DNA of 64,000 bases from the sequence record NZ_CP123987.1. One strand, 5' to 3'. Both the position numbers and the translations under genes were made by a program. This stretch comes from a plasmid. Positions 7,275-50,046 of this stretch are shown here, in pieces. Numbering within the stretch: the first letter of the stretch is position 1; every line of letters begins with the position of its first letter. The notes under the pieces are model-generated. The model was not told the origin of the DNA. It made no database searches and worked only from the letters and a program-made list of their open reading frames with translations.

Positions 7275-8174
7275 CTATTCCTTCATTAAATCAGAAATAA
7301 TTTCCGCAGCACTTTTACTCTCATGAATCATTCCAGCAACTGAACCAGCAAATATTATTCCATTTTCTACATCATCTTGATAAACAGCCTTCTGATATGC
7401 CTCATCTAACAATTGATTGAATTTTAACTTATCAGTCATTTTGTCTTCCAACTCATATAGCTCTTTAGCTTTCTTATTTACAACCGTTCGACTGGCTACT
7501 CCCATTTTTGTACCAATTACACCAATAGAAGTGTCCTTTGATTCAATAATCGTTTTCTTCCAATTATCACCAACGGGACTTTCCTTAGAAATCGAGAAAA
7601 TTGTACCACATTGTACACCTTCAGCTCCCATCGCCATTGCTGCCTTCACTCCACGATTATCAGCAATTCCTCCGGCTGCAATAACAGGAATATTTACGGC
7701 ATCAACAACTTGAGGCCAAAGAGTTTGCGATGCCATAGTTCCGATATGTCCTCCACTTTCCATACCTTCAGCAATAACAGCATCTACACCTAGATCTTCC
7801 ATCTTTTTAGCAATTTTTACATTTGGAATTACAGGCATTACTTTTATTCCTGCTTCCTTTAGTTTAGGCATATATAATTTAGGTGTACCAGCACCAGTTG
7901 TTACAATTTTTACTCCTTCTTCAATGACAACATCAACGATTTCTGGAGCCCTCTTATTTAAAAACATCAAGTTGACAGCAAATGGCTTATCAGTTAATTC
8001 TTTTACTTTATGGATTTCTTCGCGTACCTGTTCAGGTGTATCTTGCCCTGAAGCTAGCACCCCTAAACCACCAGCATTAGAAACAGCTGCCACCAATCCG
8101 ACTTTAGCTACATCTTGCATCGCTCCTTGAATAATTGGATATTTAATTCCTAACATTTCTGTAATTCGATTCAT
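7275..8174 (-). CDS. NAD(P)H-dependent flavin oxidoreductase, nitronate monooxygenase / FabK-like family
   Basis: 299 aa. The MLGIKYPIIQGAM N-terminus and GG(I/H)xG FMN-binding motifs are typical of the NPD/FabK family. Confidence 0.75.
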   Translation of the reverse strand: MNRITEMLGIKYPIIQGAMQDVAKVGLVAAVSNAGGLGVLASGQDTPEQVREEIHKVKELTDKPFAVNLMFLNKRAPEIVDVVIEEGVKIVTTGAGTPKLYMPKLKEAGIKVMPVIPNVKIAKKMEDLGVDAVIAEGMESGGHIGTMASQTLWPQVVDAVNIPVIAAGGIADNRGVKAAMAMGAEGVQCGTIFSISKESPVGDNWKKTIIESKDTSIGVIGTKMGVASRTVVNKKAKELYELEDKMTDKLKFNQLLDEAYQKAVYQDDVENGIIFAGSVAGMIHESKSAAEIISDLMKE

Positions 8175-11792: not shown

Positions 11793-14700
11793 ATGCTTAA
11801 CAAGAATAATCATTATGGCAAACAACTTGCTAATACTCCACATACACCTCGCTACGCTCTTAGAAGGCTTAAAGTTGGACTTGTTTCAGTCGCTCTTGGA
11901 ACTGTCTTTTTCTTTACACCACAAGCTCTAGCTGATACAACTAGTGGAGTTGATACGAGTACAGACCCTTCTACATTAACCACTACTAATGCAGCTGAAA
12001 ATCACACAACTAATGCTTTGAGTAGTGCTAATGCTGCCAACAAAGTCAGTTTAACTAATACTACTTCAAAGAATACAGTCCAGGCATCTTCTACTTCCAA
12101 TAACACTGAAACTGTTACAAATATATCCACGCCGACTACTACAAGTGGAACAGAAAACAATACTGCTAATACTCAAAGTAGCAACACCAATGCTATCGAA
12201 AATAACACAGCTACCGATACTACAATAAAAGCTAATAATAGTAAGGTTCAATCGAAGCTACAAGCTACTCCAAGTAATACTAGTGCTTCAATCAGTGATA
12301 ACAACACTAATCAAGTAACACTTTCTCATGGTCAAGCACAAGGACAACGTGTCGTTAATATTACTACTGACGCTACTAGTGGGGACACTTTTACAATTGA
12401 AGTACCTTACATTTTTACAGCCACAAACAATGCTAATGGAGATCTCTTCTCTGCAGAGACGAAACTTACTCCCGTAAATAATCCTGCTTTTATTTCGAGC
12501 AAACCGCTCTTTAATACTACTTTTATTTATCATATTAAAAATGTTAATGGAAATATTTCATTTAACGTCAATTTATTACCACAGTTACGTGACTGGGCTC
12601 TATTAAAACCCGGTCAAGTATTCAAATTAACAGTAGCTCGCAATAATCAACAGGTAGGCGATATCACTTACACAATTGGCCCACAACCTTTAATAAATGA
12701 TGTAACGATTACCTTTGATCATAATCAAAGCAACAACTTACTTCCTAACCAGACATATATGGTAGGAATTGGACTACCTAATGATGGAGTAAATGACGGC
12801 GATAACTTCACTGGAACAATTAAGGTTGATGTTCCAGATGGATTTGTCTTTGATTCTAGCCGTTCTAATGGCGTGGTTACCGGTTCTAATATTGGTGACG
12901 ATTTAGGTATGTTTAATACTTTAGGTTCGATGGAAGGGATATCCATCAGTCAAGAAGCTGCTGGAAAACCTATTATCATTGAATATAACCGTACAAAATC
13001 TGAATTAGGTAAAGGATTCATCCTTCTTTACGGTCACTACACTAAGAATATTGATGCTAGTCAAAACACTTTCACAGCTACAGTAACAGCAACAACAACT
13101 AATGCAGATGGCGATAAAGCAAACTATGATGGATCAATTCAAACAATTACCAAGAGTCGTAATATTAGTATGCCAGTAGAAAATCCGGCTCGAAATTCTC
13201 TCGACTCTTCATTTGCTATTGGGGAAAACAATATTTATCGTGACCAGGTCAATCCAGATGGTAGTCATAGATCTGATGATCCAAAGTTAACATATGGGGC
13301 ACAACGTCGGATTGAAATTATCAATAATGGAAACCAAACTCAACAAGATGTTACTACCCATATCAATCTAGAACCTGGAACAGTACTTGTTAAGTTAAGT
13401 AATGGAAAATATGGATTGCTACTAAATTCTTCAGATATCAACAAACCAAAGTCAATAGTAGCTACTCTCGAGGACGGAAGAAAAGTAAATATTCCTATTA
13501 ATATCTCTACTTTCAGCGATGGTCGTAGTATTGGCTATGCTGCACTAATTACTTCTGACTTAGTTAATTCAGGAGTAAATGCAGACGGAACAAATATTAC
13601 TTCTCTTGATGTTACCTATACTTCACTGGAACCAGGAACAAAATTAGAAATTTCTTTTGGAAATAACGGTTTGATTTCTGACAAGAAACCTGGAGAAGTT
13701 GCTACTTACTCCTATACAGTAACCTCTGCTAATGGAGCTAGTCATAACGGAGTTCAATCTATTCCGATTGCCGATCCAAAGGGGTTTCAATATCAATTTA
13801 CTGGTTGGATTAACTTTGCTGGTGGCGATTACCAACCCAACAGTGAAAATGGTGGAAATATTGCCAAAATTTCCTATACTCTTCAACACGTTAATTATTC
13901 AGATGAAGCAAGTTCTTACCTAATTGAAATTCCTAGAGGATTCACTGTTAACCCAAGTGATCTTCGTCTCTTTCAAAATAATAAAGAAGTAAAAGATGGA
14001 AAGATTGAATATTTAGGGACTGTTGGAGAACACGGGGAACAAACTTTTGTTATTTCTCTCCCATTCATGCCCTTTTACGGAATTCCAGTTTATGTGAAGG
14101 ATGCTAATAACCAAGACTTAACCATAACGGCAACACCTAACCAAGCACCTGCGAACTACTCATATGCTCCAACTTTGGTTGATACTAATCCTTTAATTGC
14201 TGAAATTGTAACAGATAAGAATAAATTTACTCCAGTTTCATACCAAGCGTTCCATACTATTACTCGTGGTAATCAGACCTTTACTATTCTTAATATGCCT
14301 GGTTTCGGCCCAAACTGGGTTAACTATTCTTTTAGTTATGCTTCAACTTATAGTAGTTTTGATTCAATTCGTTCTAATGGCGATTATATTCAAGCTGGTG
14401 ACAGCTTAACTAATCCACCTAAATTAAACTATATTCAAAACGGCCAAGTGGATAACACCAACGGAAGTCTTAAACTTAATACTTATTTATCTGATCTTGG
14501 AAAATCTGATTGCAGTTATAACCTAGTAAATTTACCAGACGTTGCACTTGGGGATAATACAACTATTTCACTTACTGGACAAGGAACAATCAGTGAAAAT
14601 AGGAACGGAGAAAATGTACAGCTTCTTTACTCTACGAAACATATTAACAAAACTGAAGCTCTCACTGAAGATGACTTCAAAGACTTTATAACTGCTGATA

Positions 14701-16306
14701 AAGTTACAGATTGGTCTGCTATTAAAACTGTACTCCTAAAAGCTGGTACTCTTACTAGTCCAGGAAATATCACTGCTGAATTGCCGTTCAAAGTTACTGA
14801 GATGAAAGATGGAGAGATTAATACTAACGTAATCTTCAACACTAACTTCACTGGTTTTCATAATGCAATTACTCATAGTAATCCACAACTAGCACTTAAT
14901 GTGCAACGTTATATCAACGTTACTACCAAATGGGTAGACGATGATACTGATCAAGAGCTAGCTCCAAGTACTACCCAAATGGTACGCTCTGGCGATACTT
15001 ACCAAACTATCGCTAAGCCAGCTGATCTTAATCCAAATTATCGTCTTGAACGTGTAGAAGGAAATCAATATGGAGTTACTGGTGCTAATGATCTTATTGT
15101 TACTTACCATTACAAGGCTCTAACAGATGACTCGTTAAAAGAAAGCAAATCCATAACTAGAACTATTAACTATGTGGTTAATGATGGTCAAGTCCAAGCT
15201 CCAGATACGGTAGTCCAAGCTGTTACTCTCATTCGCCATGGAAGTAAGAACTTGGTAACTGGTAATATAACTTGGGGACAATGGAGTGATGATCAATGGA
15301 ATGAAGTTGTTTCTAAAACAGTTAAGGATATCACCCAGATAAAGAATCTGTAGCTCAACAAAAAGTAACAACAAACACTGATAATACAACAATAACTGTA
15401 CACTATATTAAGAATCCGATTGTATCTTCTACTGAAAGCAAGACTGTTAAACGTACTATTAACTATCTCGTTGATGGCAATGAAGTTTCTGCTCCAGATT
15501 CCGTAAACCAAGAGTTCACCTTCTCTCGTGATGTATTCACTGATACCATCACTGGTGATGTTACCTACGGTAACTGGAACGTCGATAATACTTCTTTTGA
15601 AGCTGTCGATTCTCCTTCATTGAAGGGTTATACTCCGGATCTTAAATCTGTTACGGCTTTAACTGTTACTCCAGATACTAAGGACACAGTCATTACTGTT
15701 ACTTATACTAAGAATCCAATTGTAACTTCTACTGAAAATAAGACGGTTAAACGTACTATTAACTATCTCGTTGATGGCAATGAAGTTTCTGCTCCAGATT
15801 CCGTAAACCAAGAGTTCATCTTCTCTCGTGATGTATTCACTGATACTGTCACTGGTGATGTTACCTACGGTAACTGGAACGTCGATAACACTTCTTTTGA
15901 AGCTGTCGATTCTCCTTCATTGAAGGGTTATACTCCGGATCTTAAATCTGTTGCGGCTTTAACCGTTACTCCAGATACTAAGGACACAGTCATTACTGTT
16001 ACTTATACTAAGAATCCAGTTGAAGTTCAACCAACTCCTAAACCAACAGAATCGGTTGACTCAAATAAGACTGATCCTGCTGATTCAACAAATACAATGA
16101 CAAAACATGTTAACTCAACTACAGTAACTGCTAAATCACAAATAATAAATCAAGTTGTTCCTTCCCAACCAGTTACAAAATCTAAGAAACTTCCACAAAC
16201 TGGTGAAGAACATAATAGTTTAGCTACTATCGGTCTCTTAATACTTTCATTAGCAACTGGCCTTGGTTTAAAGAAACGAAAAAAAATTAATCTTTTAATT
16301 GATTAG
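11793..16306 (+). pseudogene. LPXTG-anchored mucus-binding-type surface protein, split by a 1-nt frameshift near 15322-15328
   Basis: YSIRK-like signal peptide (RYALRRLKVGLVSVALG), a Ser/Thr-rich region, MucBP-like repeats, and a C-terminal LPQTG anchor with hydrophobic segment and KKRKK tail at the end of the second ORF (15620..16306). ORF1 stops at 15351-15353. Adding one G in AAGGAT restores a continuous frame through the 300-bp repeats. Confidence 0.8.
15395..16020 (+). repeat. Coding tandem repeat, two near-identical 300-bp (100-aa) units of a MucBP-like module
   Basis: 15421-15720 and 15721-16020 are about 97% identical (KTVKRTINYLVDGNEVSAPDSVNQEF...). An upstream diverged copy at about 15130-15330. 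Confidence 0.85.
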
Positions 16307-18395: not shown

Positions 18396-18734
18396 CCCCT
18401 ATATTATGGTCATCAATATGGTTTTTACATTACGCCTTGAAAAGGTTTTTGTCAATACATTTTAATTATTTAATTACAAACACTTATTTATAAATATTAA
18501 AACTTATTTATATGTAAATTAACCATAACTAACACTTAATTAAATGCAAAATTTTAAAAAAATAAACTTACCTAGCATTTATCGAATTATATGCAGATCT
18601 CTTTACTCAATATTTAAGTTAATTATATAAAGATACCCTCAAAAGATTCTCTATAACGCTTTTGAGGGTATCTTTGTATGTGATATAATTTCAGTAGTTA
18701 TAGTTGCAACGTAATTTTTAGTGAGGTGTTATAT

Positions 18735-19556
18735 ATGGAGTACCCTTATCGTGAAAAATTTCTATCTTGGGCTAAAGATGTTAAACATTATCGTGAAAGT
18801 ACCGTAATGTTGTACGATTATACCGTCAATAGTTTCTATAACTATTTTTATAGTCAATCAGAACATGGTAATGATATTCGTCTTGTCCGACCTCAAGATA
18901 TCACTAACTATCTTGTAAATATTCAAGAACAACATCATATTGTTGCTAATACTGCTAATAAATACTATTTTCACTTGAAAAAGTATTTTACTTTTCTCTA
19001 TAGTAATCAGTTGATTGATGAATATCCTTTAATCGATTTAAAAACTTACAAAGTCAATAAATACACTAATATTACACTTGGTTGGCAGCAATATCTACCT
19101 GAAATTTTCAAAATTGCGGAACTTTCTGATGATGCAAAATTAGAACTTTTTCTAATCTCTCAAAATATCGAACCAAAGGGATTACTTAATATTACTTTTG
19201 GACAGCTTCGAAACTTTAATACAGAAAATATTGGAATTTTGCTAGATAATATTGAAGTAAAACCTGATAATTATTTCGTATTCTCACTAAAAAACGATCC
19301 TGAAAAACCATTGAATTCGTTAAATTCATTATTAATGAGAGTTAGACCTGATGAAGAAATTTTGAATATGACACTAGCCCCTTCAAAATTAAGACAAAGT
19401 TATATTTACAATTATCTCCTTACTAATAAAGATAAATCCGAAATTGAACTTCTAGATCATCTTCATCTATCTATTAAGTCATTAGTATATTATCGTCAAA
19501 ACTTGCTCAATATTGACTTTAATAATTTTGTTTATGAAACTCCAAAAGAAAAGTAG
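18735..19556 (+). CDS. XerD-like tyrosine-recombinase family protein, possibly catalytically degenerate
   Basis: N-terminal core-binding (SAM-like) domain pattern. No clear R..H..R..Y catalytic tetrad visible. RBS GTGAGGTG before ATG 18735. Confidence 0.45.
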   Translation: MEYPYREKFLSWAKDVKHYRESTVMLYDYTVNSFYNYFYSQSEHGNDIRLVRPQDITNYLVNIQEQHHIVANTANKYYFHLKKYFTFLYSNQLIDEYPLIDLKTYKVNKYTNITLGWQQYLPEIFKIAELSDDAKLELFLISQNIEPKGLLNITFGQLRNFNTENIGILLDNIEVKPDNYFVFSLKNDPEKPLNSLNSLLMRVRPDEEILNMTLAPSKLRQSYIYNYLLTNKDKSEIELLDHLHLSIKSLVYYRQNLLNIDFNNFVYETPKEK

Positions 19557-20822: not shown

Positions 20823-21152
20823 TTGTTAATCTACAATAATCCTACCCTAATCTTTACGAAATAAAAATCTACCAGTGGTTTAATGGTAAAGAATATTCAA
20901 AAAATTTTTATTAATTATTATTTTTTAGAACGTTTTACTTTTGCAGCAACTAAGATAAGAAATAGTGGAATAATACCGGCAACTCACCCATATTTAAAAA
21001 TATCAATTATTCAATAGTAATAATACAATAAAAACTAGTATTGACTTTTTCATATGTACTCCTTAACTTCAAAATAAAAAATTAAGAAAAATCATTAAGT
21101 AAAAATATACTTTTTTAATTTGATTTTTCCTAACTTTCTTACTCTATTGATT

Positions 21153-21350
21153 TTAACGCTTTCTTTCATAACGTTTTGTTGTCACCAATGATTGATAGAC
21201 ATATCTTATACCTAGGTAAGTAAATAATATATCAATAATTGCAAATAAAAAATATCCTTTATCAAGAAAAATACTTCCTACTGCTATTGATAACATTACT
21301 AAACCGATATAAAAAGTATAATTTTTATAAAAATTTTTATTTATTTTCAT
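21153..21350 (-). CDS. Small membrane protein (hypothetical)
   Basis: 65 aa, 2 TM segments. Confidence 0.35.
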   Translation of the reverse strand: MKINKNFYKNYTFYIGLVMLSIAVGSIFLDKGYFLFAIIDILFTYLGIRYVYQSLVTTKRYERKR

Positions 21351-21857
21351 ATATTACTCTCCATTTCTACTAATAACTTCAGCTAGATTTTTCCATTATA
21401 TAATTTCATTTCCTAGTTTTAATTTATCATATTCTCAAATCATCGTGCCTAAATTATCGAATTAGGTCTTTTTTAATACATATCTGGCTTAACCAAATAC
21501 GCTTTAAAAAGTTCATATTAGGCTTGAAAAATCATCCTATCTTTCATTTGAAATACAATAACTATAGGTAATTATCTTAAATAAGGATGTGAAAAAAGTG
21601 AATAAAAGAATAGACTACTTTATTGGTATAGCCAATATATGTACAGGAATCCTAATGTTGTTTAATAGTAATAACTTATATCCCTTAATTTTTTGTATGA
21701 TGGGATTAATTTCTATAATTGCAACTACATTGAAGAAGTGAATACTAACTTTTATCTAATTTTGTTTAACATATTTAGCGACCCATTACTTTATATTGTA
21801 AATATATTAATAATAGTCAATAAACATTTGCAAAGATAATCATGAGATGTCATATAA

Positions 21858-22168: not shown

Positions 22169-22963
22169 TTAAACTGTTTTCAAATTATACCTTTCAATCA
22201 AACTTTTCATTTTAGCCTTACTTCTCCTAGGAAAAGTCTCCTTATATCCATCTTTAAAAGAAATACTCCTTGTTGACAGGTTAATTTCAACAATATTACT
22301 TGGATTAGCTAAACAAGATTGTGATATTTTTTCTAGAAAATCATTTTCTACCTCTAACTTCTTAATATCGCCTGTAAACTCACCCATACCATTAACTGTA
22401 ACTATTTTCAATCTATGTGACTTAGGAGTGGTAATAATATATAGAATATCATTGATATTTTCGTTAATAATTCTTCTGCCCATTTTATAGCTAAATGTCA
22501 TTTTCTTTATGGCATGAGATTCCCTAATTCTCCTTGCAGCTAATGATAAAGTCTCATTTAGTCGTTTTTGAATCACTTCATCATTATCATTTTTAGTAAT
22601 AAAATCCAATGCTCCAGTACGACGTCGATAAGTCATTGCTGCTAGATTTTCATAAGCTGTAATAAAAATTATCTGTGCATTTGGATCTTTTTGTCTAATA
22701 AATTCAGCTAAATCTATCCCATCTCTATCTGCTTTATCTTTACTAAGTTCAATATCTAAAAAATAAACTCCACTATCTACTTTGTTATCTTCCAAATAAT
22801 CGGCTACTTCAATATAACTATTAGCTTCCAAAGTTATTTTAAATTTTTTACCTTTACTGTCAGCAGAATCTTCTAAAGACCAAATAGCATATTTAACTAG
22901 ATCATGTATCCTTCTAACTTGATCCTTCTCATCGTCACAAATAATAATTCCATATTCTTCCAA
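22169..22963 (-). CDS. LytTR-family response regulator (AgrA/PlnC-like)
   Basis: N-terminal receiver domain (IIICDDE... D.. K) and C-terminal LytTR DNA-binding domain (YIITTPKSHRLKIVTVNGMGEFTGDIKKLE). Confidence 0.85.
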   Translation of the reverse strand: MEEYGIIICDDEKDQVRRIHDLVKYAIWSLEDSADSKGKKFKITLEANSYIEVADYLEDNKVDSGVYFLDIELSKDKADRDGIDLAEFIRQKDPNAQIIFITAYENLAAMTYRRRTGALDFITKNDNDEVIQKRLNETLSLAARRIRESHAIKKMTFSYKMGRRIINENINDILYIITTPKSHRLKIVTVNGMGEFTGDIKKLEVENDFLEKISQSCLANPSNIVEINLSTRSISFKDGYKETFPRRSKAKMKSLIERYNLKTV

Positions 22964-22976
22964 ATTAAACTACCCC

Positions 22977-24264
22977 TTAAATGCTCATAACCATAAGGAA
23001 AGTAAACCAACCATCTTTAATTTGATAATTAATAAAAATATCATTATAAGATTGACTTAATTCTTCTATATTAGCTAATCCTAATCCGTCATGATTCTTC
23101 TTAGTTGTAAAACCTGATTTTTTTATATCTTGAATTGTTAGATCGGTATCTCGATAACGATTTCTAATCTCAATTTCAAGTTCACCATTTTCTTGATAAA
23201 TCATAGTATCTATCTTAGCTTCATCACCAAACTCAAGACTTTCTTCAATTGCATTATCGTACACAATTCCTAATATTCTAACAATGTCAAACGAGTTATA
23301 CTTATTCGACAAGTTTTCTATCACAATTCGACATTCAAAAGAATATTGAATATTGTTTTGAAAGATTCTATTCAACTTACTGATAAATAGACTCTTTAAT
23401 AATTCATCTTTAACATTGTCAACATCATTAAACTGCCATAATACTTTATCTTCTAAAGTCTTACTTGAATATTCAGCTAGTTTATCTATTAACTCTTTAT
23501 CATGACTTTTTTTACACTGAGTTTCAAGCTTAATAGCATATTTTGATAATCGTGCTTAAATTTACGTAAACCTCGCTGGCTACTTTCTAACTGTTGTGTA
23601 TAAATTTTTAGATCATTAATTTGTTGTAAACTTAATTTATCCTGCCGTATTTTCTTATTAATGGAATATACAAATAATGAAAAGAACAATTGGCTAACAA
23701 CAACTACCGTAGCTATAATATACGATACTGCATCTATATTAAATACATATGTTGTTAGATAGTAAATAACCATTGAACTAATCCATATGTATAAAATTAA
23801 ATAAAAATACAATAATCCATACTCATCATCTAGTTTCTCTATTATAGTCGTCTTTGTTAAAATTATATATTCAAAAATGTTTAATGACACATCTAATATT
23901 ATCACACTGACCATTGTGTAATAATTTGTAAATAATGTAAAAAATAATGCTGAAGCACCGAATGTTATATAGGAAAATAAATCTAGCATTAACAACCTTC
24001 CACATAATCTGTAATCCAAAGTTAGTTGTCTGTATACAATATAAAAAATAAAAATTTCAATAAATGGTGCAAAAAAACCAATAATATCTCCAACACCATT
24101 AATTAAAAGAATTACAGGAAAAGTAAGAAGTATAAATAATAAATTATACTTCTTACTTTTCCTAGTAGGGGTCAAAAGATAAAAAAACTATATCTACAAA
24201 AAGTATTTATAAATAAAATTAGTGTAGCTACTATATAACCAGATGTTGAATTTAAATTAACCAT
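22977..24264 (-). pseudogene. AgrC-like (HPK10) histidine kinase, frame-disrupted
   Basis: ATG at 24262-24264 overlaps the IP stop (TAATG). The frame is lost at an A7/T7 tract at 24181-24187. The TM sensor plus H-box (RKFKHDYQNML) ORF runs 23489..24175. The HATPase part (GLGLANIEE) 22977..23375 is in the same frame but separated by TAA, TAG, TAG. The intervening 45 nt read sensibly (SHDKELIDKLAEYSSK) only in another frame. Confidence 0.7.
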
Positions 24265-24380
24265 TATTTACAAACACCAAAAAATGTGAATATACATTGC
24301 CATCTTTTAAAGCCACCCTTTTTGGTTGCTCCCCCAGCTATTTTCTGTAACTTCTTTTCTGTTAACACTTCAAACTTCAT
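24264..24380 (-). CDS. Induction-peptide (autoinducer) precursor with double-glycine leader
   Basis: Unannotated 38-aa ORF MKFEVLTEKKLQKIAGG/ATKKGGFKRWQCIFTFFGVCK. RBS GGAGAG 7 nt upstream. Immediately upstream of and overlapping the HK start. Classic IP-HK-RR arrangement. Confidence 0.75.
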   Translation of the reverse strand: MKFEVLTEKKLQKIAGGATKKGGFKRWQCIFTFFGVCK

Positions 24381-24499
24381 AAAAAATCTCTCCTTTGTTA
24401 TCTTTATTACAAATATAGTTTAACATTTTTTAATCTACTTTATTCGTTTTTTATCATATTCGGTTCATTTTAATGCTTATTTGGATGAAATTCTTAAAA

Positions 24500-24688
24500 C
24501 TATAGCCACCACATAAAATTTAACACCCACGCTCTCACATAACTTATTTTCTTATTCTTTTCTATGACTTTCTCATCAAATAACTTATGATGCCCCTCTT
24601 CTTTTAGACTAGTATAAATACTGATAAAAATACTATATGCAACTATTACAGTAATCCCAAATATCATATACTCACTTCCTAATCCCAA
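24500..24688 (-). CDS. Small membrane protein, candidate bacteriocin immunity protein
   Basis: 62 aa with one TM segment, directly downstream of the two bacteriocin peptide genes. Confidence 0.4.
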   Translation of the reverse strand: MGLGSEYMIFGITVIVAYSIFISIYTSLKEEGHHKLFDEKVIEKNKKISYVRAWVLNFMWWL

Positions 24689-24811: not shown

Positions 24812-25018
24812 CTAACGGCAACTTGTAAAGCCACCAGAAATTCCACCCGCTACGGCTGACCAGGGTCCACCGATAGCTCCAATTAAAGCTCCACCTACGA
24901 TGCCAGCTCCACAGTGAACCCAGCGATTTCCACTACCACCATAACCATTTTTACCACCATTTACTGATGCTAAGTTATCTTCAGTCATAATTGTGAATCT
25001 TTTATCTAGATTTTTCAT
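24812..25018 (-). CDS. Class IIb bacteriocin peptide (beta-like), GG-leader, Gly-rich
   Basis: MKNLDKRFTIMTEDNLASVNGG leader, then KNGYGGSGNRWVHCGAGIVGGALIGAIGGPWSAVAGGISGGFTSCR with multiple GxxxG motifs. Resembles LafX/GatX-type peptides. RBS AGGAG 9 nt upstream. Confidence 0.8.
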   Translation of the reverse strand: MKNLDKRFTIMTEDNLASVNGGKNGYGGSGNRWVHCGAGIVGGALIGAIGGPWSAVAGGISGGFTSCR

Positions 25019-25035
25019 TTTAAATTACTCCTATA

Positions 25036-25227
25036 TTATAAACAAGTAAGTGCTCCGCCTACCATTCCTAAGTTTGCTCCACCTACAATACCAGCTGGTC
25101 CAAGTGGAACTCCTGCAGCTGCTCCAGCAAATAGACCACCTAAAAAGTTACCTACACAGTTAGGACCACGTTTCCCACCATCAACCTTTGCTAACTCACA
25201 TTCTGTCAATACTGTAAATTCCTTCAT
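25036..25227 (-). CDS. Class IIb bacteriocin peptide (alpha-like), GG-leader, Gly-rich
   Basis: MKEFTVLTECELAKVDGG leader, then KRGPNCVGNFLGGLFAGAAAGVPLGPAGIVGGANLGMVGGALTCL (GxxxG-rich, 2 Cys). RBS AAAGGA upstream. Start chosen at MKEF; an alternative ATG lies 3 nt upstream. Confidence 0.8.
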   Translation of the reverse strand: MKEFTVLTECELAKVDGGKRGPNCVGNFLGGLFAGAAAGVPLGPAGIVGGANLGMVGGALTCL

Positions 25228-25235
25228 CATGATAA

Positions 25236-25493
25236 TCATCCTTTCATATGTTTATTTACTTTCATCGCAGTATCTAATAAGTAAAGTAGTGTACTACCAC
25301 CTACTAGACAAAAAATAGTGACTATTATCATTTTAGGCGTTTGAATATAATCTAAATAAGACATTTCCTCATTACCAAACAGCCATATTCCTAGTGGAAT
25401 CAATAGTGCCCAAATAACTGGAGCAATAACATATCTCTTCTTTCCTCTAATGAATCCACCATCCAACCAAGTCTCCCATAGTTTTTTTAGCAT
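25236..25493 (-). CDS. Two-TM membrane protein translationally coupled to peptide alpha (immunity / accessory candidate)
   Basis: Stop overlaps the peptide start (ATGA). Start chosen at MLKKLWETW because of the RBS AAAGGGTG. Confidence 0.45.
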   Translation of the reverse strand: MLKKLWETWLDGGFIRGKKRYVIAPVIWALLIPLGIWLFGNEEMSYLDYIQTPKMIIVTIFCLVGGSTLLYLLDTAMKVNKHMKG

Positions 25494-25622: not shown

Positions 25623-25796
25623 TTAACTACAAATATTTTGATTTGAGTGTCTTAATCTTTTAAAAAATTTAGTATTAGCAATTGTACAGCCTATATCGTA
25701 ACCAAACTGTCCGCTATCTATATAATCATAAGAATTTCTTCCACCAATTATATGTGCCAATTCTTTCTTATCAACTTGTACAAAATTATTATTCAT
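25623..25796 (-). CDS. Unannotated GG-leader peptide (bacteriocin-like or pheromone-like), 57 aa
   Basis: MNNNFVQVDKKELAHIIGG/RNSYDYIDSGQFGYDIGCTIANTKFFKRLRHSNQNICS. RBS GAGGTG 9 nt upstream. TATAAT box about 30 nt upstream. Below the ORF-track length cutoff. Confidence 0.65.
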   Translation of the reverse strand: MNNNFVQVDKKELAHIIGGRNSYDYIDSGQFGYDIGCTIANTKFFKRLRHSNQNICS

Positions 25797-26028
25797 AACT
25801 TCAACACCTCATAATTTTAAAAATTTATTATAGCTATAATTTACACTTATAATTATTCACTTCATCTGCTCTTTTTGACTATTTCTTCTAATTTTGCTAA
25901 ATTTTATTCTTATTCTCTTTTTTCAACCAGATAGGCACCGCTTACTACCAAATTGGAAAAATCCCCTCAATTCATCACTTTCTATGTGATAATAAAAATA
26001 CTTTTATAATGAATTGAGGTAAAAAATT

Positions 26029-26292
26029 ATGAATAGTTTTTCTAATAATATTAATTTCAGCAAAATTTCTGTTTCACTAATTACTTTATTCCTGTTGATC
26101 TGGACATTAGTTGATGGAAATCTAATTCATCTTGGTATATTGGCTTTTTCTTCTTTGGTTACAACCATGCTACATTTTCACTATTTTGAATCTACTGATG
26201 ACAAACATCCATTAAATAGAATTGATTTTGGATTACAATTACTATTTATCTTTATTTCTATTATTAAGTTTTTCTTGATTTCAGGAAGATAA
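26029..26292 (+). CDS. Small membrane protein (hypothetical)
   Basis: 87 aa, 3 TM segments, RBS GAGGTAAA. Followed by the terminator at 26299-26340. Confidence 0.45.
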   Translation: MNSFSNNINFSKISVSLITLFLLIWTLVDGNLIHLGILAFSSLVTTMLHFHYFESTDDKHPLNRIDFGLQLLFIFISIIKFFLISGR

Positions 26293-26298
26293 CAATAA

Positions 26299-26340
26299 GC
26301 CTATCAGGTATCAAATTACACCTGATAGGCTTATTTATTA
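26299..26340. terminator. Bidirectional terminator
   Basis: AAGCCTATCAGGT...ACCTGATAGGCTT 13-bp perfect stem. Confidence 0.8.
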
Positions 26341-26650
26341 ACAATTTTGTACTTCTTTTTAAATTTTCTTTCTGGTATAATTTTACGATTAGTGAAATCC
26401 AAGTAATCGCCTATATACCCACTTGCATAAGTTGCCCACCAACCTGAAGGCTCATTAAATAAAGTCTTAAAATTCGTCCAAGCACTAATTTTAACAGGTG
26501 CCTTAACTCCATTCATAATAAATAACAATTTATCACCTGATCACTTTAGATAGTTAGCTTTAAATGCTTCTTTTATCCATTCAGGTTGTTCTGCTGTTTT
26601 ACTTATCTGCCATATTTGTACTTCTTTACCTTTATAGATTGCTTTCATAG
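26331..26650 (-). pseudogene. Paralog of the 28767..29120 protein, inactivated by an in-frame TGA
   Basis: MKAIYKGKEVQIWQISKTAEQPEWIKEAFKANYLK*SGDKLLFIMNGVKAPVKISAW...KKYKIVNK is collinear with MKAIYRGRKVDVWQVSRDNVQPDWVKDAFEHNGLRWLHGSGNKVRIYWPAV...KKYRIVSED. TGA replaces the Trp codon. Confidence 0.6.
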
Positions 26651-26869
26651 AAATCACCTTCTACATATAATTAAAGAGCTCTATTAATTACATTTTCATT
26701 ATACTATTTTCATAATACATCCAATGCTAAATTTCTTAACTAGCACTATTTCTTACTTATTTGGTAAATAGTCCAAATAAGTAGTTATTGCTACCATTCC
26801 AGCAGTTTATCACACTATGTAGACATTATTTGCAATAATTACATATATACGATTAGGGGGATTGAAAAA

Positions 26870-28766: not shown

Positions 28767-29120
28767 TCAATCTTCAGACACTATCCGATATTTCTTGGCG
28801 AACTTTTCGGCTGTAACGACCTTAGAATTGGTAAAATCGATAACATCTCCCTCAAAGCCAATGTCATACATCGACACGCTGCCACCAGCTATACCAACAA
28901 AAGAAGCTGAAATATCATTCAAAATAGTTCGTACTATTCCCTTTTTTGCCCTAGTAACTGCTGGCCAATAAATTCTGACTTTATTACCACTGCCATGTAG
29001 CCATCGCAACCCATTATGCTCAAAAGCATCTTTAACCCAATCAGGTTGGACATTATCTCTACTCACTTGCCAAACATCTACTTTTCTACCTCTATAGATT
29101 GCTTTCATTTGCTTTATCAC
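28767..29120 (-). CDS. Hypothetical protein (intact member of a 2-copy paralog family)
   Basis: 117 aa. Paralog of the 26331..26650 pseudogene. Confidence 0.5.
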   Translation of the reverse strand: MIKQMKAIYRGRKVDVWQVSRDNVQPDWVKDAFEHNGLRWLHGSGNKVRIYWPAVTRAKKGIVRTILNDISASFVGIAGGSVSMYDIGFEGDVIDFTNSKVVTAEKFAKKYRIVSED

Positions 29121-47966: not shown

Positions 47967-48126
47967 TAAATGATAACAATTACTATTTAAAAAGTCAATA
48001 AAAATTATCATATTCAGAGTAAAGTTAAATAATTTGATTACTTTTTTTCAATTTTCTACAATTATCTTATTAACTACTCTAAGATTAGAAGGGAGAACGG
48101 CATTTTTTTTATTGCCTATTAATTCA

Positions 48127-50046
48127 TTGAAATATATTGTTACTGGAATTATTGCCAATGTTGATGCAGGAAAAACTACTCTTTCTGAAGCATTACTATA
48201 TCAAACGGGAAATCTACTCAATTTAGGTCGCGTTGATAACGGCAATACTTTCTTAGATACTGACCAACTAGAAAAAAAGCGTGGTATTACTATTTTTTCA
48301 CACCAAGCAAATTTAGAATATAATGATCTTTCACTGACAATTTTAGATACTCCAGGACACGTTGATTTTGTTACTCAAACCGAACAAGTTTTAAGTGTTC
48401 TTGACTATGCTATATTAGTTATTTCTGCTACTGATGGAATTACTAGTCACACTAGATCTCTTTGGAATTTGCTAAATCATTACCATATTCCTGTATTTAT
48501 TTTTGTTAATAAAATTGATATCAGCACTAATAAGGCCTCACAGATTTTATCTCAATTAAAAAGTGAATTAGATGAATCAATTATTGATTTTTCTTCTGAT
48601 AATATGATTGAAGATATTGCAACGTGCAATGAATCATTATTTGAAGAGTATTTGCAAATTAATACCATATCTGATGAAAAAATTCTATCACTAATCTCTG
48701 ATAGAGTTATTTTCCCATGCTATTTTGGCTCTGCTTTAAAGTTAGATGGTATTGATAAATTTTTACAAGGATTCAATCAATGGACAAAAAAGTTACACTA
48801 TCCGAATAATTTCCAAGCCAAAGTATTTAAAATTTCTCACAACGATAAAGGTGAACGTCTAACCTGGCTTCGTATTCTAGGCGGCTCTCTAAAAACTAGA
48901 GATGAATTATTACCTGAACAAAAAATTAGTCAAATTAGAGTATATAATGGTGAAAAGTTTTCAACTTACCCAACTGTTACTGCTGGTCAAGTTTGTACAA
49001 TTCCTGGGCTAGTAAATACCTATCCTGGTTTAAGCATTGGTAAAAAACAAGTAGATACAATTCCAATCGTTACACCTGTTTTAAGTTATGCTCTTGACCT
49101 CAATGGCAATGATATTCAAGCTTGTTTAAAAGCTCTTCATGAATTAGAAGATGAAGATCCTAAGTTACATGTTACTTGGTCTGAACATCTCAAAGAAATT
49201 AGTGTACAAATTATGGGAGAAATTCAGTTAGAAATCCTAGAACAAATACTCCTTGATCGATATAATTTAAACGTCACTTTTACTAAAGGAAATATTTTAT
49301 ATAAAGAAACTATCACTAATTCTATTGAGGGAGTTGGTCACTTCGAACCACTTCGTCATTATTCAGAAGTACATTTATTATTAGAACCTGGAGAAAGAGG
49401 CAGTGGTCTCCAGTTCGAAAATCAATGTAGTCTAGAAGTCTTAAATAAAAATTGGCAACATCAAATTATATACAATCTCAAGTCTAAAGAGCATCTAGGT
49501 GTATTAACTGGTTCCCCTCTTACTGATGTAAAAATTACCCTTTTAGGCGGGAAAGCTAGCAATGTACATACAGTTGGTGGAGATTTTCGTCAAGCATGTA
49601 GTCGTGCAGTTCGACAAGGTTTAATGATGCTCAGAGAAAATAATAATTGCCAACTCTTAGAACCTTGGTATCGTTTCAGACTAAAAGTTGATCGTACTCA
49701 AATTGGTCGTGCAATCAATGATATTCAACGAATGCATGGTACCTTGGATGAACAACAAGTTGAGGGGATACTAACTGGAATTGCTCCTGTTTCAGAAATG
49801 TACAATTATGCCACCAATGTACGCGCATATACTCATGGGAATGGCACACTAGAATTGGAAATTGCTGGTTATTATCCTTGTCATAATTCGACAGATATAG
49901 TATCTCAACAAAATTATGATCCTGTATCAGATTTAGAAAATACTCCACAATCTGTTTTCTGTGCTCATGGAGCTGGATATACAGTTGACTGGAAAGATGT
50001 ACCTACAACTATGCATTGCGAGTATTTTTGGAATGGGATGAATTAG
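48127..50046 (+). CDS. TetM/TetO-family ribosomal-protection-type GTPase (EF-G paralog)
   Basis: G1 motif ANVDAGKTT and the VDNGNTFLDTDQLEKKRGITI segment parallel TetM [21 protein letters not shown]. Also DTPGH and NKID motifs. About 640 aa from TTG 48127. The ORF track extends to 48034. Confidence 0.7.
   Translation: MKYIVTGIIANVDAGKTTLSEALLYQTGNLLNLGRVDNGNTFLDTDQLEKKRGITIFSHQANLEYNDLSLTILDTPGHVDFVTQTEQVLSVLDYAILVISATDGITSHTRSLWNLLNHYHIPVFIFVNKIDISTNKASQILSQLKSELDESIIDFSSDNMIEDIATCNESLFEEYLQINTISDEKILSLISDRVIFPCYFGSALKLDGIDKFLQGFNQWTKKLHYPNNFQAKVFKISHNDKGERLTWLRILGGSLKTRDELLPEQKISQIRVYNGEKFSTYPTVTAGQVCTIPGLVNTYPGLSIGKKQVDTIPIVTPVLSYALDLNGNDIQACLKALHELEDEDPKLHVTWSEHLKEISVQIMGEIQLEILEQILLDRYNLNVTFTKGNILYKETITNSIEGVGHFEPLRHYSEVHLLLEPGERGSGLQFENQCSLEVLNKNWQHQIIYNLKSKEHLGVLTGSPLTDVKITLLGGKASNVHTVGGDFRQACSRAVRQGLMMLRENNNCQLLEPWYRFRLKVDRTQIGRAINDIQRMHGTLDEQQVEGILTGIAPVSEMYNYATNVRAYTHGNGTLELEIAGYYPCHNSTDIVSQQNYDPVSDLENTPQSVFCAHGAGYTVDWKDVPTTMHCEYFWNGMN

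Follow-up and report, generated by a model that had tools for sequence, protein, structure and literature searches.

The open reading frame (ORF) at 25623..25796 of the 64,000-nt stretch of DNA analyzed here (the window) is very probably salB, the known gene for the salivaricin B prepeptide in the abp118/salivaricin locus of Ligilactobacillus salivarius, and silent in this strain, our high confidence applying to the two statements taken jointly and not extending to what the mature peptide does. It is a rediscovery of what is already known, and it carries little weight as a discovery because salB has been named, published, and annotated.

Identity of the gene

The window derives from a L. salivarius megaplasmid: within the plasmid collection, the only matches to the region are in 26 L. 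salivarius plasmids, and it shares 99.95% identity with plasmid pLS2102-15_1 across 14.2 kb. In pLS2102-15_1, salB is annotated as WP_041823193.1 ("bacteriocin"), with a translation identical to that of the window ORF. The window peptide also agrees at every residue with the "Salivaricin B" listed for strain P1CEA3 (57/57; Table 4 of PMC11594732), so that no peptide-level difference separates it from the salivaricin B of P1CEA3/M6/M7, and it matches the UCC118 pMP118 copy (WP_003703486.1) at 56/57 residues, V6I being the sole change. The exact peptide occurs on at least 1000 public contigs, and PGAP has annotated it across many genomes. Names differ among variants: in UniRef, the UCC118 variant (ABE00725.1) is entered as "Nonfunctional salvaricin B", and the JCM1046 variant is named "ComC/BlpC family leader-containing pheromone/bacteriocin" by PGAP. 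A reading made earlier from the sequence alone (hereafter the sequence-only reading) had described the ORF as unannotated. This does not stand, as RefSeq and UniRef entries exist and the sequence is printed in PMC11594732; the ORF was absent only from the first ORF track.

The position of the gene also matches the published one, i.e., on the megaplasmid, upstream of a DUF5976 gene and abp118 alpha/beta, and in the same orientation. The UCC118 copy corresponds to "ORF3 (presalivaricin B)" of the Flynn 2002 locus (PMC10095417), and the name salivaricin B goes back to L. salivarius M6/M7 (Cataloluk 2001, as cited by PMC10095417). The peptide has been placed among the class IId bacteriocins of L. 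salivarius (PMC3809560; also PMC11594732). The lantibiotic "salivaricin B" of Streptococcus salivarius K12 is unrelated, and has only the name in common with SalB.

Organization of the locus

The minus strand carries, in order, salB, the DUF5976 gene, abp118 alpha, abp118 beta, an abpIM-type ORF, abpIP, abpK, and abpR (Table 1), with 130 nt separating salB from the DUF5976 gene. SalB is thus encoded on the same strand as abp118 alpha, abp118 beta, and abpIP, in agreement with the co-orientation reported in the sequence-only reading. No terminator was found between salB and the DUF5976 gene, so salB transcripts probably continue into the DUF5976 and abp118 alpha/beta genes. The UCC118 locus differs from that of the window in having abpT and abpD, a continuous abpK, and a further, truncated DUF5976 paralogue that lies after salB and ahead of the DUF5976 gene.

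Table 1 Features of the salB locus and its surroundings in the window
Feature	Position	Strand	Evidence or remarks
Site of missing abpT/abpD	20922..21856		Keeps a 65-aa ORF and a repeat pair
abpR, LytTR response regulator gene, 264 aa, intact	22169..22963	minus	97% identical to UCC118 AbpR
abpK* histidine kinase gene, three ORFs	22977..24264	minus	1-nt deletions at ~24187 and ~23514
abpIP induction peptide gene	24264..24380	minus	100% identical to UCC118; repeat pair at 24455-24484
abpIM-type ORF, 55 aa, downstream of abp118 beta	24500..24667	minus	89% identical to UCC118 ORF
abp118 beta prepeptide gene	24812..25018	minus	100% identical to UCC118; Pfam Bacteriocin_IIc
abp118 alpha prepeptide gene	25036..25230	minus	100% identical to UCC118; Pfam Bacteriocin_IIc
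DUF5976 gene, 85 aa, two hydrophobic segments	25236..25493	minus	Pfam PF19401, E = 1.8e-35; hydropathy
salB prepeptide gene, 57 aa	25623..25796 (stop codon included)	minus	ATG start; translation is MNNNFVQVDKKELAHIIGG followed by RNSYDYIDSGQFGYDIGCTIANTKFFKRLRHSNQNICS
Predicted SalB mature peptide RNSYDY...NICS, 38 aa, RNSYDYIDSGQFGYDIGCTIANTKFFKRLRHSNQNICS	25626..25739	minus	
salB double-glycine leader MNNNFVQVDKKELAHIIGG, 19 aa	25740..25796	minus	TIGR01847, Pfam ComC, strict consensus regex
salB ribosome-binding site GAGGTG	25805..25810	minus	8 nt before ATG
salB -10 box TATAAT	25827..25832	minus	30 nt between box and ATG; poor -35 (TAATTA)
Direct-repeat pair CCAGATAGG-N12-CCAAATTGG	25927..25956	plus	Between salB and the divergent ORF
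Divergent predicted membrane protein ORF, 87 aa	26029..26292	plus	92-100% conserved

The DUF5976 protein is immunity-like and may be regarded as a candidate immunity protein for SalB. A search for the gene pair in other species returned no DUF5976 homologue outside L. salivarius. We considered and rejected the identification of the DUF5976 gene as abpIM, since it is the 55-aa ORF following abp118 beta that has the 89% identity given for abpIM (PMC10095417). In some strains, salB and the DUF5976 gene are separated by an additional DUF5976 paralogue with ~70% identity, the window having a single copy; this paralogue is full length in SNK-6 and has a stop codon inside it in UCC118 and CECT 5713 ("bacteriocin-like prepeptide"). 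In the compared loci it lies at 7701-7853 (L002), 1761-1952 (L003), 1798-2052 (L008), and 597-851 (L005). The PGAP label "bacteriocin" on these DUF5976 membrane proteins looks to be a misnomer.

Leader, mature peptide, and expression signals of salB

The 57-aa ORF noted in the sequence-only reading is present on the minus strand with an ATG start, and the leader described there as canonical fits the double-glycine consensus on direct reading at every key position (G-1, G-2, I-4, L-7, E-8, V-12, and F-15). SalB scores above the cut-off of TIGR01847 bacteriocin_sig (16.8 vs 15.7 bits). Its best Pfam match is ComC (PF03047), 0.1 bit below the cut-off (20.3 vs 20.4 bits) and restricted to the leader (residues 3-26), and the score with Bacteriocin_IIc (PF10439) is below its cut-off (13.7 vs 27.1). 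When the strict leader regex was applied to all small ORFs of the window, it returned AbpIP, Abp118 alpha, and SalB. Together with a reading of the beta leader, this gives four double-glycine-leader peptide genes in the locus (alpha, beta, AbpIP, and SalB), so that salB is the fourth of its kind and not the third, as had been stated.

The mature region, described previously as 38 aa long and cationic with two Cys residues, has a computed pI of 8.8 and a net charge of ~+1.8, with Cys at mature positions 18 and 37. The charge is distributed unevenly, the N-terminal half being acidic (-2.2) and the C-terminal half basic (+3.8). The peptide has a computed average mass of 4433.85 Da, which falls to 4431.83 Da if one disulfide forms. 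The GAGGTG ribosome-binding site and the TATAAT box ~30 nt upstream were both located where the sequence-only reading had put them (Table 1). We rejected a classical sigma-70 promoter, as the -35 element is poor (TAATTA).

Conservation and selection

We found salB by tblastn in 23 L. salivarius megaplasmids, in 22 of which the frame is intact, with identities of 96.5% or more. The sequence-only reading had listed lack of conservation in orthologous loci, together with lack of a detected transcript or peptide, as what would refute it; the ORF is conserved. Nei-Gojobori comparison with JCM1046 gave 10 synonymous and 2 nonsynonymous differences (pN/pS ~0.04), with 6 and 1 against UCC118, and 6 and 0 against SNK-6. 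The expression signals are similarly conserved: the -10 stretch TGTAAATTATAGCTATAAT is identical in all 8 strains compared, the divergent C2-1 included, and the GGTG core of the ribosome-binding site is unchanged in the 8 strains, with only C2-1 having A for the first G. The only clear loss is that of C2-1, whose salB has a 1-nt deletion in the leader. Three plasmids have related loci without salB (26 region matches vs 23 salB matches).

An ORF of only 57 aa, with a ComC score 0.1 bit under the cut-off, might be an open frame arising by chance rather than a gene. We give this next to no probability: the synonymous substitution pattern already refutes it, and the conservation of the frame, the low pN/pS, the retained ribosome-binding site and -10 box, the TIGR01847 score over the cut-off, and the PGAP annotation in many genomes (at least 1000 contigs) all speak against it. 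Judged by its pattern of substitution, salB is a real gene under strong purifying selection.

The gene is also narrowly distributed. The full prepeptide, searched against an index of 5.8 billion proteins, matched six clusters only, all of them SalB variants or fragments. A homology search with the mature region only, a check that had been named beforehand, was run as an exhaustive phmmer search of the 38 aa against 1.84 billion representatives, and it returned nothing but SalB itself. A PDB sequence search gave 0 matches at E up to 10. As far as these searches reach, salB is restricted to L. salivarius, and no relatives are detectable outside the species. AlphaFold2 without an alignment suggested only short helices, with a pLDDT of 77.5 for the best model; the model is unreliable because the other four reached only 47-55, and Foldseek of the model against the PDB gave 0 matches.

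Export and sensing in this strain

AbpT and AbpD have no tblastn match anywhere in the 64-kb window, and its large ORFs contain no C39 or ABC domain. DNA comparison shows that abpT-abpD of UCC118 is replaced by ~0.9 kb, which retains a 65-aa membrane ORF (21153-21350, minus) and a repeat pair (21458-21487, minus); in JCM1046, the counterpart of this ORF and repeat pair sits just before abpT. A tyrosine-recombinase-like ORF lies near the site (18726-19556). The kinase gene is broken as well, the two 1-nt deletions having turned the continuous 430-codon abpK frame of UCC118 into three ORFs. The regulator gene abpR is intact in the window and split in the otherwise 99.95% identical pLS2102-15_1.

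With abpT and abpD missing, SalB is probably neither processed nor exported in this strain, and with abpK broken, induction of the locus is unlikely. Reading the locus as it stands, we consider that SalB, if made at all, is most likely an unsecreted, unprocessed prepeptide in the cytoplasm. The locus of P1CEA3 has exactly the same architecture, with abpK* present as ORFs 10-12, abpT and abpD absent, abpR at 97%, abpIM at 89%, and abpIP at 100% identity (PMC10095417). Colony MALDI-TOF, purification, and LC-MS/MS all failed to reveal SalB or Abp118 in P1CEA3 (PMC10095417). The nisin S gene, looked for as a sign that the window might come from P1CEA3, is absent from it.

The window is only 64 kb long, and SalB might still be processed and secreted here by a double-glycine-leader ABC transporter encoded outside it. 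Lactobacilli often have more than one C39 ABC transporter, and a compatible one could sit elsewhere in the genome. We nevertheless consider this very unlikely, given that P1CEA3, with the same architecture, yielded no detectable SalB or Abp118 in supernatants or colonies, and that the broken abpK makes induction unlikely.

By megablast, abpT was detected in only 10 L. salivarius plasmids vs 23 with salB, so orphaned loci are common, with the caveat that about ten of the records counted are near-identical badger isolates. A rival reading takes salB to be a relic that has lost its function throughout L. salivarius and is carried along in the locus. Several observations are in keeping with this: the UniRef name "Nonfunctional salvaricin B", the failure to detect either activity or peptide (PMC10095417), the double loss of salB in C2-1 (one copy of the region lacking the gene and the other frameshifted), the three plasmids with related loci and no salB, and the low share of salB-bearing plasmids with a megablast-detectable abpT (10/23). 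A true relic, however, would gather nonsynonymous changes and stop codons, whereas salB shows 10 synonymous vs 2 nonsynonymous differences in one comparison and 6 vs 0-1 in the others, an intact frame in 22/23 plasmids, and an invariant -10 box and ribosome-binding-site core. A species-wide relic therefore seems unlikely to us, and we regard it as equally improbable that SalB is functionless in those strains that have kept the transporter.

Direct repeats and the divergent ORF

Upstream of abpIP and of abpT (in UCC118) are direct repeats in 21-nt phase, with a consensus of ~ACCAAATWKG, located at distances of 105-107 and 84-86 nt from the start codon and followed ~30 nt downstream by a TG-extended -10. 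By analogy with LytTR systems in general, we presume that these 21-nt-phased repeats are the boxes of AbpR, a LytTR regulator. A similar pair between salB and the divergent 87-aa ORF (25927-25956) is present in 8/8 loci. Relative to the divergent ORF at 26029, the pair lies at -103/-82, the better match, with a TG-extended -10 ~31 nt downstream; relative to the salB ATG, it lies at -160/-139, the poorer match. As the repeats are 139-160 nt from the salB ATG and fit the divergent gene better, control of salB by AbpR is only putative, and salB may instead be expressed from its own TATAAT promoter; the orientation and spacing suggest that the pair serves the 87-aa ORF rather than salB. The degenerate repeat pattern is expected to match 0.07 times by chance in the window; because it was built from these very sites, only the third match, at 21458-21487 (one mismatch), is semi-independent.

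The 87-aa ORF is intact in all 8 strains, with 92-100% conservation, and it is unannotated or shortened in some records. Its protein belongs to no Pfam family, and a hairpin terminator follows it (26294-26335). It could be an inducible gene of the immunity type. In C2-1, the repeat region is duplicated (L005 430-600 and 1440-1660), one copy being without salB and its promoter; in this salB-less copy the upstream repeats directly adjoin the promoter of the DUF5976 gene, which is thereby preceded by three half-sites spaced in 21-nt phase.

The 38-aa and 65-aa ORFs at 26331-26657 (minus) appear to be the remains of one gene, frameshifted and paralogous to the 117-aa ORF at 28767-29120 (minus), with which they share the N-terminal motif MKAIY.G..V..WQ.S and the C-terminal motif FTN.K...E.KF.KKY.IV.

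Class and function of SalB

If SalB follows the biology of other double-glycine-leader peptides, the C39 peptidase domain of the ABC transporter AbpT would cleave its prepeptide behind Gly19, and AbpT with the accessory protein AbpD would export it as a 38-aa, 4.43-kDa peptide, which may be closed by a Cys18-Cys37 disulfide. Among known classes, SalB resembles the class IId bacteriocins (e.g., salivaricin L and bactofencin A) in being a small cationic peptide with a double-glycine leader and two Cys residues that are possibly looped, and in being encoded in a quorum-regulated class II locus next to a small membrane protein gene. It has no sequence relative among them, according to the exhaustive phmmer search with the mature part, and it differs from bactofencin A, which is 22 aa long and highly basic, in its 38 aa and acidic N-terminal half.

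Other classes fit less well. The YGNG[VL] box of class IIa pediocin-like bacteriocins is absent from the mature sequence, and we rejected membership in the two-peptide class IIb: SalB has one GxxxG motif (GYDIG), but salB has no adjoining partner prepeptide gene, its next neighbor being the DUF5976 gene. Nor does SalB fit a pheromone of the AbpIP/PlnA type (the ComC/BlpC family), with which it has the leader type in common. Such peptides are ~19-27 aa long and encoded directly upstream of the kinase/regulator pair, and neither length nor position fits. Mature AbpIP has 21 aa and its gene already occupies the pheromone position, whereas mature SalB has 38 aa and salB is separated from abpK by 1.2 kb and four genes. 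The three functions offered in the sequence-only reading accordingly fare differently. The second pheromone is not supported, as the mature peptide has 38 aa and not ~20, the gene is not beside the kinase/regulator pair, and the locus has one kinase; for an enhancer peptide we found nothing in support, either here or in the literature consulted. The class IId bacteriocin is in part upheld, in that the literature places SalB there, and in part called into question, because SalB synthesized in vitro killed 0/9 indicator strains, whereas Abp118 alpha + beta made in the same manner were active (PMC10095417).

With these results, our tentative reading, held with somewhat less than even confidence, is that SalB acts as a narrow-spectrum bacteriocin of class IId type in strains with an intact transporter, with the DUF5976 protein as the candidate immunity protein. 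In an alternative reading, SalB is secreted and conserved for some purpose other than killing, e.g., as a signal, as an interference peptide, or to assist Abp118. In its favor, selection is strongly purifying, yet SalB made in vitro left nine indicators unaffected; "a different biological function" was raised by the authors of PMC10095417 themselves, and salB is kept beside different two-peptide bacteriocin genes, e.g., in strain H1. Yet the locus lacks a second kinase/regulator pair, the mature 38 aa is about twice the length of AbpIP-type pheromones, salB is not adjacent to abpK/abpR, Abp118 alpha + beta made in vitro are active without SalB, and the gene after salB encodes a small membrane protein of two segments, an arrangement resembling that of bacteriocin-immunity pairs. 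As a general account of SalB, this alternative has in our view a low probability, and when limited to transporter-intact strains it is somewhat less improbable, though still doubtful. A more specific version, in which SalB is a species-restricted secreted non-bacteriocin that signals or modulates competition, is kept independently of the neighboring two-peptide bacteriocin, and has as its partner either the DUF5976 protein or the divergent 87-aa membrane protein, the latter being driven by the AbpR boxes, also appears unlikely.

Other features of the window

Two large ORFs elsewhere in the window deserve mention. One (48034-50046, plus) encodes a 670-aa EF-G/Tet-like translational GTPase. Among NCBIfam families it scores best with tet_protect, but the 379 bits reached are under the cut-off of 775, and by this criterion it is no bona fide tetracycline-resistance protein. 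The other (11793-15353, plus) encodes a surface protein of 1186 aa that carries both a YSIRK signal peptide and a MucBP domain and is probably an adhesin for mucus.

Implications

The clear purifying selection on salB argues for a function, whereas the activity tests of PMC10095417 were negative; for a probiotic species as well studied as L. salivarius, this poses a modest question, one already put in the literature. In the present strain, the locus has neither the transporter genes nor an intact kinase gene, so that genome mining tools will report "salivaricin B" and "Abp118" although the strain probably secretes neither of them.
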